Source: an uncultured delta proteobacterium (GTDB taxonomy: Bacteria > Myxococcota_A > Polyangia > Palsa-1104). Taken from it: a DNA stretch of 64,000 bases. Positions within the stretch are counted from its first letter, which is position 1. The number at the start of each line of letters is the position of its first letter. This document shows positions 29,149 through 36,030 of the stretch, one piece after another. The stretch lies in assembly GCA_963785725.1 (NCBI GenBank), contig CAWAWS010000004.1, positions 128,001 to 192,000 of the forward strand. The letters run 5' to 3'. Under the pieces are notes generated by a model. It made no database searches. It worked only from the letters and a program-made list of their open reading frames with translations, and was not told the origin of the DNA. A program made the translations under genes and the position numbers.

Positions 29149-31648
29149 TTACTCGGCCAGCTCGAAGTCGGTGCGCGCCTGCGGGACCGACGGCTCGAGC
29201 AGCAGCGAGCCGGGCACGCCGCGCAAGGCCGGCGCCAGCAGGCGCGAGAGTAAGTCTTCGCCGGCGACGCGCTCGCCGCCGATGCCGAACAGCTGCAAGA
29301 GCTCGCTCAACAGCGTCGTGTCGTCGGGGATCGCCTCCAGCTTGACGCGTGCCTTCTCGGACAGGCCGGCGCGCTGCTTGGCTTCGGCGACGGCGTCCAT
29401 GAGGCCGCCGTATTCGTCGACGAGGCCGTGGGCGCGGCCGGCCTCGCCCGACCAGACGTGACCGCGGCCGATGGCGTCGACCTCGGCCGTCGTCAGCTTG
29501 CGGCCGCGCGACACCTGCGCGACGAAGCGGCCGTAGAAATAGCGCAGCTTCTCCAGGATCAACACGCGCTCTTCGTCGGTGTACAGGCGCCACATGCTGT
29601 CCATGGCCGCGTGCGTGCCGCGCTCGTAGCTCTCGAAGCTGACGCCGAGCTTGTGGGCCAGGCCGCTGACGTCGAACTTGCCGGTGAAGATGCCGATGGA
29701 GCCGGTCAGCGTCGAGGGCTCGGCGTAGATGCGCGAGCAGGCGGCGGCGATGAAGTAGCCGCCCGACGCGGCCACGTCGCCGAGCGAGCAGATGACCGGC
29801 TTGACCGTGGCCGTGCGCTCGAGCTCGCGGGCGAGCACGTCGGAGGCGAGCGCCGAGCCGCCGGGGCTGTCGATGCGCACGACGATCGCCTTGACCTGCG
29901 AGTCGTCGCGCGCGCGCTGCAACGCCGCCAAGAGCGTCTGCATTCCCGTCAGGCGCATGTCGACGAGCGGGATGTACGCCGACTTGCCGTCGACGATGTC
30001 GCCGTCGACGAAGAGCACGGCCACGGCCGGCCGCTCCCAGTCGAGATCGCGCTCGACCGTCGTCGGCGGCGTGCGCAGGTTGTAGTGCCGGCCGAGCGCT
30101 TGCGTGATGGCCTCTTCGACCTCGTCGCCGTGGCGCAGTTCGTCGACGAGCCCGGCCTGCTTGGCGTCGACGGCGGTGTAAGGTCCGCGGTCGATCCAGT
30201 CGCGCACTTGGTCGGGCTTGACGCTGCGTGACTCGGCGATGCCGTTGACGAGGTGCGCGTAGGTGTCGCTGACGTAGGCTTCGCGCTGCTGTTTCGCCGG
30301 CTCCGACGAGCTGTCGCGCAGGTATTGTTCGGGCGCGCTCTTGTATTCGGCGATCTTGACGAAGTCGGCGCGCACGCCGAGCAAGTCACCGAGGCCGCGG
30401 AAGAACAGGCTCGTCGACGCCAACCCGACGAGCCGAATGCCGCCGGCCGGATCTTGGTAGACGCGCTCGGCGGCGGACGCGACGAAGTAGCCGCGCGTCG
30501 TGGTCTCGCCGATGTACGCGAAGACGTGCTTGCCGGCGCGGCGCAAGCGCATGAACGAGGCGCGTAACTCTTCGGCCGTGGCCCAGCTGCCGCCGACCTC
30601 GCCGATGACGACGACGATGCCGGCGACTTCGCGGTCGCGCTCGAGGCGGCGCATCCACGAGGTCAAGAGCGCCAGTTTGCGCGCGCCCAGCTGGCCCGTC
30701 AGCTCGATGCGCTCGAGGTGCGTCGGCCCTTGCCAGAACGTCGGATAGCGATCGCCGGAGAGGCGCCCGGCGACGGTGAAGCCGTGGGCGCGCGTCACGC
30801 CTTGGTCGCGCCCGAAGAGGCCGAACACTTGCGCGCCGATGTGCTCGAGATCGAGGGCGACGCCGAGCGCGGCGCGGATGTCGTTGACGGGCGCGGCGTC
30901 GAGGTCGATGTAGCGCTTCCACTCGAGGTCGCACTTGATCGTGACGCCGGCGGTGGGCGTGATCCACAGGCGAAAATGCGGGTCGATGTCTTCGCGCCGC
31001 TCGCCGATGCGCGCGCCCGCCGACAGCTCGACGACGTTGCTCGAGAACGGCCGCAGCGCGATCTCCGGCTCCCACACGCGCTGCAGCGGAAACTGCGCCA
31101 CCGCCGGCGACGGCAAGTCATGCAGCACGAGCGCGGCCGAGATCCAGCGCGCCGGCCGCAAGCGTCAAGGCGACGTCGAGCGTGTCGATGCCTTGCGCCA
31201 CCGGCCCTTGGTCGGCCCACACGTGCGCGTAATGCAGGCCGAGCGCGAGCGTCGAGAAGAGCCGCACCGCCAGCGCTAGGTCGAGCTTCTGCTCGTTGCC
31301 GAAGGGGAAATCGACCGGCGGGCGCAGCAGCTGCACGCCGATGCCGAGGCTGATGCGCGACAACAGCGGCAGCGGCGCGGCGAAGAAGAAGCCGTCGCCG
31401 CGCCCGCCGACGGTCTGCGCCGGATCGAGCTCGGAGTGCAAATAGACGCCCGACCACGACGGCAAGTAGGCCAGCGACGCCGGGTTCTTCTCGATGTCGC
31501 TGGCATCGGCATCGCCGGCGACGCCGACGGTCGGGTTGTAGACGCCGGGCGTGGGCGGCTCGCCGACCGGGATCTGCTTCGTCTGCGCGCGCGCCGACAG
31601 CGGCCAGATCAGGAAAACGAGCGCGACGGCGACGACGGTTTTACGCAT
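29149..31648 (-). CDS. sppA: Signal peptide peptidase SppA (two S49 domains) with a long N-terminal extension; frameshift at ~31160
   Basis: EYKSAPE, RIDSPGGSALASD, VAASGGY, LTGSIGI, GRGHVWSG, GLVDEYGG; N-terminal part with signal peptide lies in ORF 31118..31648. Confidence 0.9.
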
Positions 31649-31674
31649 GGGGCCGGCAGTATATGATCGGGTTC

Positions 31675-32154
31675 ATGGCGGTGACCAACGCTGAGCTGCT
31701 ACGACAGCACCCGCTTCTGGCGCGGCTGTCGTTGGAGCAGGTGCTACGCTTCGCGCAGGCGGGCGAGCTGGAGAAATTTCGCGCCGGCGAGGACATCGTC
31801 GTCGAAGGGACGCTCGGCGACTCGCTCTATCTCATTCTGTCGGGCAGCGCCGAGGTGCACGTGGGCGGCGGCGAGACGCGGCCGTTGGCGACGCTCAAGC
31901 CGGGCGAGTTCTTCGGCGAGATGTCGCTGGTCGAGCCGGCGGTGCGATCGGCGACGGTGCGCGCCGTCGACGACGCCGAGCTGTTTCGCGTGCCGCACTA
32001 CGCGCTCGCGAACCTGCTCGAGGACGATCCGGTCGTCTTGCACCTCGTGCTGGTGACCGTCATTCGCGTCTTGTCGAAGCGGCTGCGCGACACGAACGGG
32101 CTCGTCGGCTCGGTCGAGAAGCTGTCGGAGTGGCTGGCGGCGTCGCTGGTCTGA
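31675..32154 (+). CDS. Stand-alone cyclic nucleotide-binding domain protein
   Basis: IVVEG..GDSLYLILSG, FFGEMSL...RSATVRA; no HTH. Confidence 0.9.
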   Translation: MAVTNAELLRQHPLLARLSLEQVLRFAQAGELEKFRAGEDIVVEGTLGDSLYLILSGSAEVHVGGGETRPLATLKPGEFFGEMSLVEPAVRSATVRAVDDAELFRVPHYALANLLEDDPVVLHLVLVTVIRVLSKRLRDTNGLVGSVEKLSEWLAASLV

Positions 32155-32319: not shown

Positions 32320-32335
32320 AGGTACGATTGTTGCT
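32320..32335 (+). promoter_or_regulatory. Putative sigma54 (-24/-12) promoter
   Basis: AGGTACGATTGTTGCT versus consensus TGGCACGRNNNTTGCW; exact GG-N10-GC spacing, just upstream of ATG 32349. Confidence 0.65.
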
Positions 32336-32348
32336 TTTCGCTGGCGCC

Positions 32349-33950
32349 ATGCGAGTCAGGGGAAGCCTGCGCCGAACCCGCGGCGTGACGGCGATCGAGT
32401 ACGGCGTGGTGCTGGTGCTGGTGGCGATGAGCGTCATCATCGGCTACCGCACCTTCGGCAAGCGCGTTCGCTGCGCCATGGCCAGCGCCGGCGACAAGCT
32501 CGCCGACTCCGATGGGCCGAGCGAATGCCAGCCGTCGCCCACGGTCGCCCAAAACGGCGGCGGCGGCAGCGGCGGCTGCCAAGGCGCCGCCTGCTTCCTG
32601 CCCGGCAAGTGCTTCGTCGCCGGCACGCTGGTGCTCACCGACGAAGGCGAGCAGCCGATTGAGACCATCACCGTCGGCGAGCGCGTGTTGGCGCGCGACG
32701 AGGCCGGCGTGCTCGGCTGGCAGCCGGTGCTGCGCACGTTCGCGCGCTCGACGGACGCGCTGGTGCGGCTGACGCTCGACGACGACAACGCGATCGAGCT
32801 GACGCCCGAGCATCGGCTGTTCGTCGACGGGCGCGGCTGGGTGGAGGCGCGCGACGTGGCGGCGGGCGAGTCGCTCGTCGACGCCGGCGGCGCCGACGTC
32901 GTCGTGGGCGCGGTCGAGTCGGTCGCGCGCACGGCGCCGGTCTTCAACCTCGAAGTGGCCGAGCTGCACAGCTACTTCGTCGGTGGACGGCAGATCTGGG
33001 CGCACAACGACTGCGGCGACGGCGAGGGATCCGGCAGCGGCGGCAGCGGCGAGGGATCCGGCAGCGGCGGCAGTCCGCCCGCGAGCAGCGGTGGCGGCGG
33101 ATTGGCGCCGCCGTCGATCGCGCCGCCGACGGTCGCGCCGCCGACGGTGTCGACGGAGTCGGGCGGTCCCGGCATCCTCAGTCCGCCACCGCCACCGCCG
33201 CCGCCGGCTCCGGCCGTGCCGCCGCCGAGCATCATCACGCCCAGCAGCGCGGCGCCGCCGGCGGTCACGCAAGGCAGCACGGCCGTGGCGCAGGCGACGC
33301 CGCAGCCGACGACGGCGTCAGCCGTGCTGTCGTCGGTGCCGAGCGGTCACTTGACGCTGTATGCCGACATCGAGGCGACCGGCATGCTGGGCGGCAACAT
33401 CCCGACCGTGCAGAACATGCAGCAGGGCGCCGTCGGTCACGCGTTCATCGGCTTCAACGAAGGCAACGGCAACGAACGGCTCATCGGCATGTGGCCCAAC
33501 ATCTACAACAACCAGTATTACGATCCCAGCCGTCCTTGGGCGTCGGTCGGCGGCCTCGTCATGGAGCCGGACGAAGACCACTACGACAGCCCGCACCTGC
33601 GGCAGCAGCGCTATCCGTTGACGCCGGCGCAGGTCGCGGCCGTCAATCAGTACATCAACTCGCATCGCAACCCGCAGTCGCCGTACAACCTGTTCGGCTG
33701 GCGCGGCGGGCAGAACTGCGTGACGTTCGCCTGCGGCGCCGTCAGCGCGGCCGGCTATACGCCGCCGCCGTACAGCATCTTCGGCTTTCCCAACCCGAAC
33801 GCGCTGCACAACAACTTGCCGCCGCGGCCGCCGACGCCGCCGCGACCGCCGACGCCGCCGTCGCCGTCGCGCAGCAGCAGCTTCGGCAGCATCTACAGCT
33901 CGCACAGCTCGGGCAGCGTCTACAGCACGCACAGCAGCACCGGCCCCTGA
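32349..33950 (+). CDS. Flp/Tad pilin - Hint (intein-like) - Pro-rich linker - permuted papain-like domain fusion protein
   Basis: RG|VTAIEY plus hydrophobic helix; CFVAGTLV...LTPEH...VFNLEV...WAHN (32610-33008); GHAFIG...YNL...NCVTFA. Confidence 0.9.
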   Translation: MRVRGSLRRTRGVTAIEYGVVLVLVAMSVIIGYRTFGKRVRCAMASAGDKLADSDGPSECQPSPTVAQNGGGGSGGCQGAACFLPGKCFVAGTLVLTDEGEQPIETITVGERVLARDEAGVLGWQPVLRTFARSTDALVRLTLDDDNAIELTPEHRLFVDGRGWVEARDVAAGESLVDAGGADVVVGAVESVARTAPVFNLEVAELHSYFVGGRQIWAHNDCGDGEGSGSGGSGEGSGSGGSPPASSGGGGLAPPSIAPPTVAPPTVSTESGGPGILSPPPPPPPPAPAVPPPSIITPSSAAPPAVTQGSTAVAQATPQPTTASAVLSSVPSGHLTLYADIEATGMLGGNIPTVQNMQQGAVGHAFIGFNEGNGNERLIGMWPNIYNNQYYDPSRPWASVGGLVMEPDEDHYDSPHLRQQRYPLTPAQVAAVNQYINSHRNPQSPYNLFGWRGGQNCVTFACGAVSAAGYTPPPYSIFGFPNPNALHNNLPPRPPTPPRPPTPPSPSRSSSFGSIYSSHSSGSVYSTHSSTGP

Positions 33951-33957
33951 CGTCGCG

Positions 33958-34893
33958 TCAGCGGTCGAGCGGCTCGAGGATCGTCGGTTGGCGCGTGAGG
34001 CGCGTCAGATCGAAGTCGGCCACGAGCTCGCGCGCGGTGACGATCGCGTCGGGCGCGCACAGGCCGAGCGAGCCGGCCAGCATGCCGACGACGCGCGCCG
34101 CCGGCACGCCGCGCTCGCGCCAGCTGCCGACGGAGATGGCGCCGTGCCGCTTCGACAGGCGGCTGCCGTCGGCGCCGAGCACGAGCGGCACGTGCGCGAA
34201 CCGGGGCGCCGTCAGCTCGAGCGCGCGATAGAGCAGCAGCTGGCGCGCGGTCGAGCCCAACAGGTCGTCGCCGCGCAGCACGTCCGTCATCGCCATGGCC
34301 GCGTCGTCGACGACCACCGCCAGCTGATAGGCGGTCACGCCGTCGGCGCGGCGGATGACGAAGTCGCCCACCGTCGCCGCCACGTCGTCGGCCTGCGCGC
34401 CGTGCACGCCGTCGACGAAGGTCACGACTTCGGGCTCGACGCGCAGCCGCACCGACGGCGTGCGACCGGGTGGTCCCGACGTGCGCTCGCGGCAGGTGCC
34501 GGGATAGCGCGGGCCGTCGTCGCCGGCGCCGTGGGGCGCGGTGGCGGCGCGGGCCACTTCGGCGCGCGAGCACCAGCAGCGGAAGGCGCGCCCCGACGCC
34601 AGCAGCTGCTCGACGGCGGCGTCATACAGCGGCTGGCGCTCGGATTGCCGATAGGGCGCGTACGGACCGCCTGGGCGCGGCCCTTCGTCGCAGTCGATTC
34701 CCAGCCAATCCAGGTCGTCGAGGATGCGCGCTTCGGCGCCGGCGATGACGCGCGGGCGGTCCAAGTCCTCGACTCGCAAGACGAACGCGCCGCCGGCCGC
34801 GCGCGCCCACAGCCACGCCGCCAGCGCCGTGCGGGCGCCGCCCAAGTGCAGATCGCCCGTCGGCGAAGGTGCGAAACGACCGCGATGGCCCAT
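33958..34893 (-). CDS. gluQ: Glutamyl-Q tRNA(Asp) synthetase
   Basis: RFAPSPTGDLHLG, LRVEDLD, CWCSR, YPGTCR, YQLAVVVDD, RLSKR; 311 aa with no anticodon-binding domain. Confidence 0.9.
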   Translation of the reverse strand: MGHRGRFAPSPTGDLHLGGARTALAAWLWARAAGGAFVLRVEDLDRPRVIAGAEARILDDLDWLGIDCDEGPRPGGPYAPYRQSERQPLYDAAVEQLLASGRAFRCWCSRAEVARAATAPHGAGDDGPRYPGTCRERTSGPPGRTPSVRLRVEPEVVTFVDGVHGAQADDVAATVGDFVIRRADGVTAYQLAVVVDDAAMAMTDVLRGDDLLGSTARQLLLYRALELTAPRFAHVPLVLGADGSRLSKRHGAISVGSWRERGVPAARVVGMLAGSLGLCAPDAIVTARELVADFDLTRLTRQPTILEPLDR

Positions 34894-34912: not shown

Positions 34913-35491
34913 GTGCACGACTGGGTGGGTCCATTGATCCTCGCCGCGGTGGGCTGGTCGGCTTGGCGGGCGCGCTCGCGCGATCGCTGGCTGCAGCGCG
35001 AGCTGGCGCGTATTCCCGATGTCACGCTGTCGGATCTGAAGGAGGGGCTGCGCGTCCGCGTCACCGGCATCGTCGAAGCCGCCGGCACGCCGCTGACCGC
35101 GCCCTACTCGGGCCGCGTCTGTCTCGCCTGGTCGACGCGCGACATCGCCCGCGACAGCCTGGCCGAGCGGCTCGTCCGCTTCGCCGCCGGCGACTTCGTG
35201 CTGCGCGGCGACGACGGCGGCCGCGTGCTCGTGCGCGCCAGCGAAGCCGAGCTCGTCGTCGCCATGAACCACCCCATCAGCGTCGAGCGCGTCGGCGGCG
35301 CGGCGGTGCGGCGCGAGTCGGTGCTGCAGCCGGGCGAGCACGTCACCGTCGTCGGCACGCCGCGCCAAGAGCCCGATCCGACCGGCGTCGGCAGCTATCG
35401 CGAGCCGCCGACGCGGCTCGTCTTCGGCGCCGGCTCGTGGGTGCTGGCGGGCGCCGCGGCGACGCAGGTCGGCGTTCGCGGCCGATGGTGA
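34913..35491 (+). CDS. Membrane-anchored hypothetical protein (GIDE-like), paralog 1
   Basis: N-terminal TM; VRVTGIV...LTAPYSGRVC...FVLR...VLVR...PGEHVTVVG...YREPP. Confidence 0.65.
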   Translation: MHDWVGPLILAAVGWSAWRARSRDRWLQRELARIPDVTLSDLKEGLRVRVTGIVEAAGTPLTAPYSGRVCLAWSTRDIARDSLAERLVRFAAGDFVLRGDDGGRVLVRASEAELVVAMNHPISVERVGGAAVRRESVLQPGEHVTVVGTPRQEPDPTGVGSYREPPTRLVFGAGSWVLAGAAATQVGVRGRW

Positions 35492-36030
35492 TGCACGACG
35501 TCTTCGGCGCGCTCATGCTCGGCATCTTCGCCGCGGCGCCGATCCTCACCTTTCGCGAGCGCTTCGGCTTCTGGCGGGCGACGCGCATCGCCGATCTGGT
35601 CGACGGCGAGCGCCTCCGCGTCGACGGCGTCGTCGAGCCCATCGGCAAGCCGCTGCGCGCGCCGTGGCTCGAGATGGACTGCGTCGCCTACAGCATCTGG
35701 CGCGAAGATCCGCCGCTGCCCGAGGAGTCCGGCGAATACGACGAGGCGCAGGACTTCATGCTCCGCGACGGCGCCGGCGACAGCGTGCTCGTGCGCGTCG
35801 GCGATCGCTTCCAATTGCGCGCCGGACGACAGATTCGCCTGCCGCCGCATGTCGACGCCCACGTCATTCAGGCGGGCGATTTGGTGAGCGTCATCGGCGT
35901 CGCCGCGGAAGTGCCGGCGCTCGACGGCATGGGCGCGACCTACCGCGAGCCGCCGCGGCGCTGGATTTTGTGCGGCAGCGACCCGCAGCCGCTCGTCATC
36001 GTGGGCCGAACACGACGGGGTAGTCGCTGA
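35491..36030 (+). CDS. Membrane-anchored hypothetical protein (GIDE-like), paralog 2 (start 35485 or 35491)
   Basis: Same motif order as paralog 1: LRVDGVV...LRAPW...C...FMLR...VLVR...GDLVSVIG...YREPP. Confidence 0.65.
   Translation: MHDVFGALMLGIFAAAPILTFRERFGFWRATRIADLVDGERLRVDGVVEPIGKPLRAPWLEMDCVAYSIWREDPPLPEESGEYDEAQDFMLRDGAGDSVLVRVGDRFQLRAGRQIRLPPHVDAHVIQAGDLVSVIGVAAEVPALDGMGATYREPPRRWILCGSDPQPLVIVGRTRRGSR

Follow-up and report, generated by a model that had tools for sequence, protein, structure and literature searches.

A Flp-pilin-led Hint protein family with varied toxin-type tips in Myxococcota, putatively exported as Tad minor pilins

In the window (the whole 64,000-nucleotide stretch analysed here), one uninterrupted open reading frame of 533 aa at 32349-33950 (+) joins a Flp-type prepilin head to a pretoxin Hint domain and a predicted papain-like tip. 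Within the host genome (8.9 Mb, 68% GC), six PT-HINT matches were found, all six behind a Flp-type head, and a search with a profile of these six heads plus the Hint start against 1.84 billion representatives returned 479 matches at E 1e-10; among the best 150 of the 479, 96 carry a pilin segment before the Hint, four of them being near-orthologues of the genome's own paralogues. We read these proteins, with a probability of roughly 0.6, as a polymorphic toxin family that is exported as Tad minor pilins and freed by Hint cleavage. The original prediction had proposed a pilin serving as export handle for the Hint-released cargo of a polymorphic effector, and this is supported by the varied tips, the tad genes of the genome, the pilin score of the head and the toxin tips with immunity genes in relatives. 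In the literature searched, a pilin carrier is undescribed among polymorphic toxin systems, and the closest named homologues come from Myxococcota, which makes the host likely a myxobacterium.

The frame is open over the entire predicted interval, with coding-like codon use throughout and a GC3 of 0.88-0.97 in six of six segments. Misassembly had been named as a possible undoing of the fusion, and the fusion can be called real because P0002, encoded on an independent contig, is 76% identical to the 533-aa protein over 92% of its length. Contigs of soil run X1 cover the ORF piecewise, one piece (32862-33418) joining the Hint end to the tip start; none of the pieces listed holds the whole ORF, and 32629-32642 falls between them. 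The lack of a spanning contig among these pieces and the frame breaks in two of the six paralogues (one just past the Hint, one near the Hint end) are the points in favour of an assembly artefact or a chance fusion, an explanation that retains practically no probability against the full-length independent P0002, the six paralogues, the 96 family representatives and the closed genomes that carry the fusion too; P0002, the representatives and the closed genomes effectively refute it.

Upstream of the ORF lies a gene for a cyclic-nucleotide-binding protein (31663-32154, +; PF00027, E 2.5e-21) that gave no sign of membership in the pilin-Hint system. Downstream, a convergent gene resembling class I (E/Q) tRNA synthetases (33958-34893, -; PF00749, E 1.1e-59) lies 7 nt past the stop, leaving no room for an immunity gene 3' of the ORF. 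Elsewhere in the window, an apparent single peptidase-type gene, which we take to be SppA-like, is split across the overlapping frames 31118-31648 and 29149-31161 (29149-31648, -), hinting at indels in the assembly at that gene, and a tandem pair of similar small membrane-anchored ORFs occupies 34913-36030 (+), the first of the two showing weak similarity to GIDE (E 0.005).

The protein opens with the prepilin leader MRVRGSLRRTRG (32349-32384, +), for which a cut after G12 is predicted, and R11-G12 are invariant in the six paralogues. Directly behind it stands VTAIEY, placing E17 at +5 and Y18 at +6, and the best 19-residue Kyte-Doolittle mean, from residue 13, is 2.37. The helix region (32385-32507, +), which includes C42, gave a Pfam match to Flp_Fap (PF04964; residues 10-48, E 1.4e-6), whose 32.2 bits on the N-terminal piece equal the cut-off exactly. 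Leader, Flp motif and hydrophobic helix were therefore rightly recognised in the original prediction. With a family pilin HMM built from 86 family heads, the 533-aa protein excluded, this head scored 57.7 bits, close to the genome's major Flp (56.0), with 38.3 for a four-Cys minor Flp, whereas the 99th percentile among 920 signal and transmembrane controls was 8.6 bits. A generic membrane anchor, the plainer interpretation of the N-terminus that had been set against a pilin, is rejected on these scores. Of 88 family members from the best 150 of the 479 matches, 76 keep G-x4-[EQ]-[YFW], the Gly being preceded by Arg in 73 of these.

Flp pilins are short, at 50-80 aa, according to the available text of PMC12075869. 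The mature protein, at 521 aa, departs from the canonical form (50-80 aa, all-helical, stand-alone), and it is a Flp-led fusion, not a canonical Flp. Between helix and Hint, the expected Cys/Gly linker (32508-32609, +) is present and contains C60, C77 and C82; C42, C77 and C82 are invariant in the six paralogues in both alignments, and C60 in alignment A1. Disulfides C42-C60 and C77-C82 are likely, and 80 of 88 family members have exactly two cysteines in the 20 residues N-terminal of the Hint.

The Hint domain spans 133 aa at 32610-33008 (+) and is a pretoxin Hint of the type A bacterial intein-like (BIL) class; PT-HINT (PF07591, E 2.3e-19) covers residues 94-220. The predicted coordinates, blocks and terminal His-Asn hold, and segment by segment HMM scanning assigned Flp_Fap to the N-terminus and PT-HINT to the Hint. 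The hallmarks of type A BILs are all present, namely C88 as Cys1, TxxH at T152 and H155, the terminal H219 and N220, and D221, which is no nucleophile, at +1; C88, T152, H155, N200, H219 and N220 are invariant in the six paralogues. In type A BILs, as far as the accessible part of PMC4031507 goes, cleavage predominates, ligation of the flanks is possible and a +1 nucleophile is usually missing. The predicted new N-terminus is D221-C222, followed by a Gly/Ser/Pro low-complexity spacer (33009-33329, +). Among members from the best 150 of the 479 matches, Cys1 and His-Asn are kept in all 89 complete proteins, the +1 residue is Ser, Thr or Cys in seven of those 89, and a Cys falls at +1 to +6 in 64 of 88. 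The flanking cysteines are thus common (64 of 88 after the Hint, 81 of 88 before it), but other pretoxin Hints share the pattern (63 of 101), and it is therefore not specific to pilin carriers. Judging from the sequence, Cys222 and the two pre-Hint cysteines could form a redox latch.

For the tip (33330-33833, +), which precedes a Pro/Ser-rich tail and the stop (33834-33950, +), the ESM Atlas, an AlphaFold model, Foldseek and conservation together predict a permuted papain-like NlpC/P60 fold resembling that of the effector TseH. A papain-like domain had been proposed, and the codons then assigned to His364 (33438) and Cys457 (33717) are correct, both residues being invariant among six aligned homologues; the proposal needs amending in that the order is permuted, His before Cys, and in that no Pfam family, TseH included, matches the tip up to E 10. 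In the ESM Atlas a TseH-like cluster ranked first (0.96, 181 of 256 features, the score being uncalibrated for protein parts). The modelled tip (pLDDT 76.6, six input sequences) likewise had TseH 6V98 as its first Foldseek match (E 0.011, probability 0.92, TM 0.45, 13% identity), ahead of weaker matches to CLN5, Aichivirus 2A, 3KW0 and YiiX, none of the matches falling below the E 0.001 mark. The tip is not filed as TseH because HMM support is absent.

With the T6SS effectors TseH and Tox-Act1, the tip shares the His-before-Cys order, the predicted fold and a similar size (PMC12994826, available portion); unlike them, it comes without a T6SS adaptor or a membrane immunity gene and is fused to pilin-Hint or eCIS_core carriers. 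The same portion of PMC12994826 reports phospholipase activity for Tox-Act1, and for TseH in one of two assays, and places the DUF4105/Lnb acyltransferases in the permuted NlpC/P60 group. On the strength of the model, the tip likely attacks membrane lipids by hydrolysing or transferring acyl groups. Its homologues are few: P0002-P0004 and P0044 sit on pilin-Hint carriers, and P0015 (E 1e-9) and P0016 (E 2e-5) stand behind eCIS_core, from which it follows that the domain moves between carriers.

The six paralogues have in common the R-G and E+5/Y+6 signature, the linker cysteines and the Hint residues named above. Their carriers are 38-67% identical, and BLAST comparison of the tips with one another matched no pair at E 0.01. 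Tox-PL1 forms the tip of one paralogue (25.6 bits vs a Pfam cut-off of 24.1). No small co-oriented gene lies downstream at any of the six loci, where convergent genes (five loci) or a sigma-54 activator (one) are found instead. Between the end of one paralogue and the tad cluster on contig C15 lie 3.1 kb. Another paralogue, on contig C7 (L006:4107-5828, +), converges on a Phage_base_V gene (VgrG/eCIS spike-type) and an unknown 290-aa gene.

A GG-N10-GC core stands 14 nt 5' of the ATG of the 533-aa ORF (32321-32334, +), and on what we take to be the -24/-12 sigma-54 consensus it is labelled as a putative sigma-54-like promoter core. The core recurs 13-26 nt upstream of the start in six of six paralogues; across the genome the strict pattern, which was defined post hoc from the six paralogues themselves, stands before 82 of the 6759 genes called (1.2%) and a looser GG-N8-TTGY before 222 of them (3.3%). 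In other genomes, only three of 19 loci have a sigma-54-like motif. At L004:6884-9419 (-), just upstream of the C20 paralogue, a gene for a GH19 chitinase is accompanied by another that has a similar Gly-rich linker; the chitinase gene also bears a sigma-54-like core, a hint of anti-fungal co-regulation.

Beyond the genome, the C-termini of Flp-Hint proteins vary, a point that the original prediction had proposed to test, 94 tips from the best 150 of the 479 matches falling into 71 clusters. A Pfam scan of the tips of 84 of the 96 members (three had been scanned earlier and nine were short or truncated) found 20 toxin-type tips, three of other families and 61 without a match. The toxin-type tips comprise ribonuclease, WHH, GH-E, EHHH, Ntox15, ADP-ribosyltransferases, Scabin-like and exotoxin A-like domains, two deamidase families, an M91 peptidase and a TcdA/B-like glycosyltransferase. 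RNases, HNH nucleases, ADP-ribosyltransferases and deamidases are thus represented among the family tips. Stv, a putative adhesin domain, is matched by one further tip, and the Flp-Hint protein at L019 ends in a YwqJ deaminase. Among variant architectures, P0007 couples a TadE-like pilin to PT-HINT and Ntox16, making a second Tad pilin type a carrier; P0041, P0045 and P0086 are pilin-led with two Hint domains each and possibly release more than one piece; and a Myxococcota MAG encodes a type IVa-type (N-methyl) pilin joined to PT-HINT with nine residues beyond the Hint (L050:822-2282, +).

The distribution of the family is patchy and multi-copy. Nine of 201 genomes of one family match the profile, one through the Hint part only, and so do three of 401 genomes of the class in a shallower search; the single-contig genomes G800, G857 and G894 hold nine, four and seven matches. 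Where a taxon was named (four of 20 examined), members came from Pendulispora rubella, a cultured soil myxobacterium (WP_394839142.1 and WP_394832720.1), a Polyangia MAG and a Polyangiaceae MAG. The three single-contig genomes provide 20 loci, 19 with a pilin-Hint ORF and one broken. At the 19, several of which are orthologous pairs so that the counts are not independent, the next gene is barstar at eight (two of these just under the cut-off, and at one locus the RNase piece forms a separate ORF), Imm74 at one, a small unknown co-oriented gene at two and none recognised at eight, one of which has an RNase tip. The pairing of RNase tips with barstar is strong evidence that the family contains real antibacterial toxins. 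Additionally, G857 and G894 carry three orthologous pairs of PT-HINT toxin genes (L171-L176) in which Lys-Tyr replaces the pilin Glu-Tyr and the cleavage Gly is missing; on the family pilin HMM their heads score -2 to 0.5 bits, one going unscored, like ordinary transmembrane segments. With three such genes in each of these two genomes, pretoxin Hint cassettes can evidently travel without a pilin.

The original prediction had called for Tad machinery elsewhere in the genome, and the genome indeed has tad genes together with two prepilin peptidases. Contig C15 encodes the genome's only RcpC/CpaB, two CpaF-type ATPases (one FHA-fused), two TadB/C-type genes, TadE, a TadG-like gene, FHA proteins and three small Flp-type pilins. 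The tad genes nearest to the 533-aa gene are a secretin, a TPR protein and a 184-aa prepilin peptidase on contig C4, about 55 kb away, a distance that we count against the Tad reading; a second, longer A24 prepilin peptidase lies on contig C24. In layout, this set resembles the Kil system of Myxococcus xanthus (PMC8460266, as far as its available text goes): two clusters, an FHA-fused ATPase, a short secretin and a short peptidase, small Flps, and TadE/TadG-like pilin genes. RcpC was found in all ten of the other genomes with profile matches that were examined, a survey of carriers only, and the co-occurrence with Tad may be general in the group rather than linked to carriers.

Several pilin-like and secretion-related genes of the host genome merit a separate mention. 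The C15 tad cluster contains a minor Flp of 65 mature residues with a four-Cys pattern similar to that of the toxin carriers and neither Hint nor tip (L002:10153-10386, -); since it ends before any Hint, it is likened to a carrier without cargo, and it is a possible ancestor or adaptor pilin. Beside the cluster, a 1193-aa ORF has a Flp-like head (34.7 bits) and Gly/Pro/Thr-rich repeats (L003:7205-10786, -), and neither a Hint nor any Pfam match was found in it. Two FHIPEP (SctV/FlhA-family) genes are present at C29:50385-52328 and C7:204920-206809, one of them possibly part of a needleless T3SS like the one that partners Kil in Myxococcus.

Combined, these features suggest the following course of events. 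The six paralogues would be co-expressed in a sigma-54-dependent manner. From known pilin topology, each protein would insert into the inner membrane with its leader inside; its Hint and tip would face the periplasm, in which the linker cysteines would pair. The RG|xxxxEY motif suggests that a prepilin peptidase then removes the leader. The protein may be incorporated at or near the tip of a Tad/Kil pilus as a minor subunit and pass through the secretin, the weakest step of the proposal. At the target cell, cyclisation of Asn220 would free D221-P533, as the preserved catalytic residues and the chemistry of type A BILs would allow; some pilin may be ligated to the tip as a minor product, and C222 may hold the pieces together, or hold the Cys1 of the Hint, by a disulfide until a reducing compartment is reached. 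Given its fold, the released tip would act on the membrane lipids of the target envelope by hydrolysing or transferring their acyl groups, a kind of activity reported for TseH and Tox-Act1. A producer that has no immunity gene would need an off-switch for a lipid-attacking tip held in its own periplasm. The fuller version of this reading, in which the Tad pilus of myxobacteria has become a toxin-delivery system in its own right whose Flp-fused effectors are polymerised, pushed onto or into prey or rivals and freed by a redox-gated Hint, is put forward tentatively, at slightly less than an even chance. The strict version of the original interpretation is weakened by the lack of an immunity gene at the 533-aa locus and by the six Hint-toxin genes with a non-pilin anchor.

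Those six genes, with their plain transmembrane-like heads, also favour a route on which the head is only an inner-membrane export signal and anchor and the toxin, cut loose by the Hint while still in the periplasm, leaves by type II secretion, vesicles, outer-membrane exchange or lysis. The class 1 MafB toxins of Neisseria, whose variable tip comes with a Sec signal and a type A BIL (PMC4287609, accessible part), are a precedent for such shedding, and the pilin-Hint genes lie dispersed, most of them far from any tad cluster. We nevertheless regard this main rival as unlikely, as the score of the head is close to that of the major Flp and well clear of the 920 controls, the tad cluster holds a matching pilin without cargo, and the peptidase motif recurs in 76 of 88 members across sequences less than 50% identical; this last point counts for a pilin role, given that a plain anchor would not need the motif. 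The export machine could also be another type IV filament, such as type II secretion or a type IVa pilus. The longer A24 peptidase and the N-methyl-type pilin genes of the genome would be compatible with this, as would the promiscuity of prepilin peptidases (PMC12075869, in the text available) and the type IVa-type fusion of the Myxococcota MAG; that fusion, however, reaches only 5.6 bits on the family pilin HMM, whereas the 533-aa protein shows an Flp_Fap match in its head and a Tyr at +6, and we consider a filament other than Tad very improbable.

A further alternative grants the pilus and questions the toxin: at this locus the displayed tip might modify or bind lipids or lipoproteins, in adhesion, prey recognition or remodelling of the cell's own envelope, with the Hint only maturing the pilin. 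Consistent with this are the lack of an immunity gene here, the acyltransferases within the permuted NlpC/P60 group, the adhesin-like family tip, and the available text of PMC12075869, in which the variable exposed domains of Kil tip pilins are thought to recognise prey. Yet the same tip rides on eCIS_core carriers, the effector TseH is its closest fold and feature match, and sister tips are nucleases accompanied by barstar or Imm74, which together make a non-toxic cargo improbable. Export as Tad minor pilins with Hint-mediated release therefore remains the reading that we prefer.

The family compares with several known systems, in each case as far as the accessible text of the cited work goes. 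As in the polymorphic toxins with pretoxin HINT domains (Zhang et al. 2012, PMC3482391), a conserved carrier is followed by a HINT immediately before a variable tip; WHH, GH-E, EHHH, Ntox15, Tox-PL1, ART and RNase tips are shared, and immunity genes lie downstream at many loci. The differences are the Flp prepilin carrier in place of an RHS or haemagglutinin stalk and the six loci of this genome without an immunity gene. The accessible text of PMC3482391 links HINT to T2SS/Sec, T5SS, T7SS and TcdB/TcaC routes and does not contain the words 'pilin', 'pilus' or 'flp'. Neisseria MafB class 1 proteins (PMC4287609) likewise have an exported N-terminus, a type A BIL, a variable toxic tip and an immunity gene, but their export relies on a signal-peptidase I signal with DUF1020, and they reside in islands with mafA and mafB-CT cassettes, whereas pilin-Hint proteins have a prepilin head and are encoded by single scattered genes. 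In Vibrio cholerae, TCP with TcpB and TcpF shows that a type IV pilus can export a folded protein via a minor pilin; TcpF differs in being a separate, non-covalently bound colonisation factor with no self-cleaving domain and no polymorphic tips.

Kil and the pilin-Hint family both have pilins with variable outer domains (PMC12075869), but the Flps of Kil are short and carry no cargo, its variable domains being borne by KilN/TadG-like pilins; in the pilin-Hint family the toxin is covalently fused to the Flp together with its own release domain. 'Intein' is not mentioned in PMC12075869. Some T7SS loci adjoin tad genes (PMC11217815), and a predatory lineage has Tad pili (PMC13755416). In the literature searched, which lay outside subscription journals and supplements, no description of Flp-Hint fusions was found, and no paper pairs 'Flp pilin' with 'Hint domain' or 'pretoxin HINT' with 'pilin'; the original prediction's view of the architecture as uncharacterised agrees with that search.

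If the proposed export is true, the type IV pilus is added to the delivery routes of polymorphic toxins. Should the delivery reading hold, the family would form a trafficking class new to polymorphic toxins and would comprise dozens of tips so far undescribed. The pilin head can also act as a marker for new toxins, 61 of the 84 scanned tips being without a Pfam match. Contact killing by Tad/Kil pili poses a question of mechanism that pilin-joined toxins address, and the toxic cargo of Kil, including the Tip4 toxin, is stated as unknown in the available text of PMC12075869 (2025). In this family, toxins come covalently joined to a pilin and equipped with a predicted release switch of their own, many loci adding the matching immunity gene, and under the delivery reading the family would be a candidate for supplying Kil-type predation pili with toxic cargo. 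The members in Pendulispora rubella make this idea directly testable in a cultured organism.
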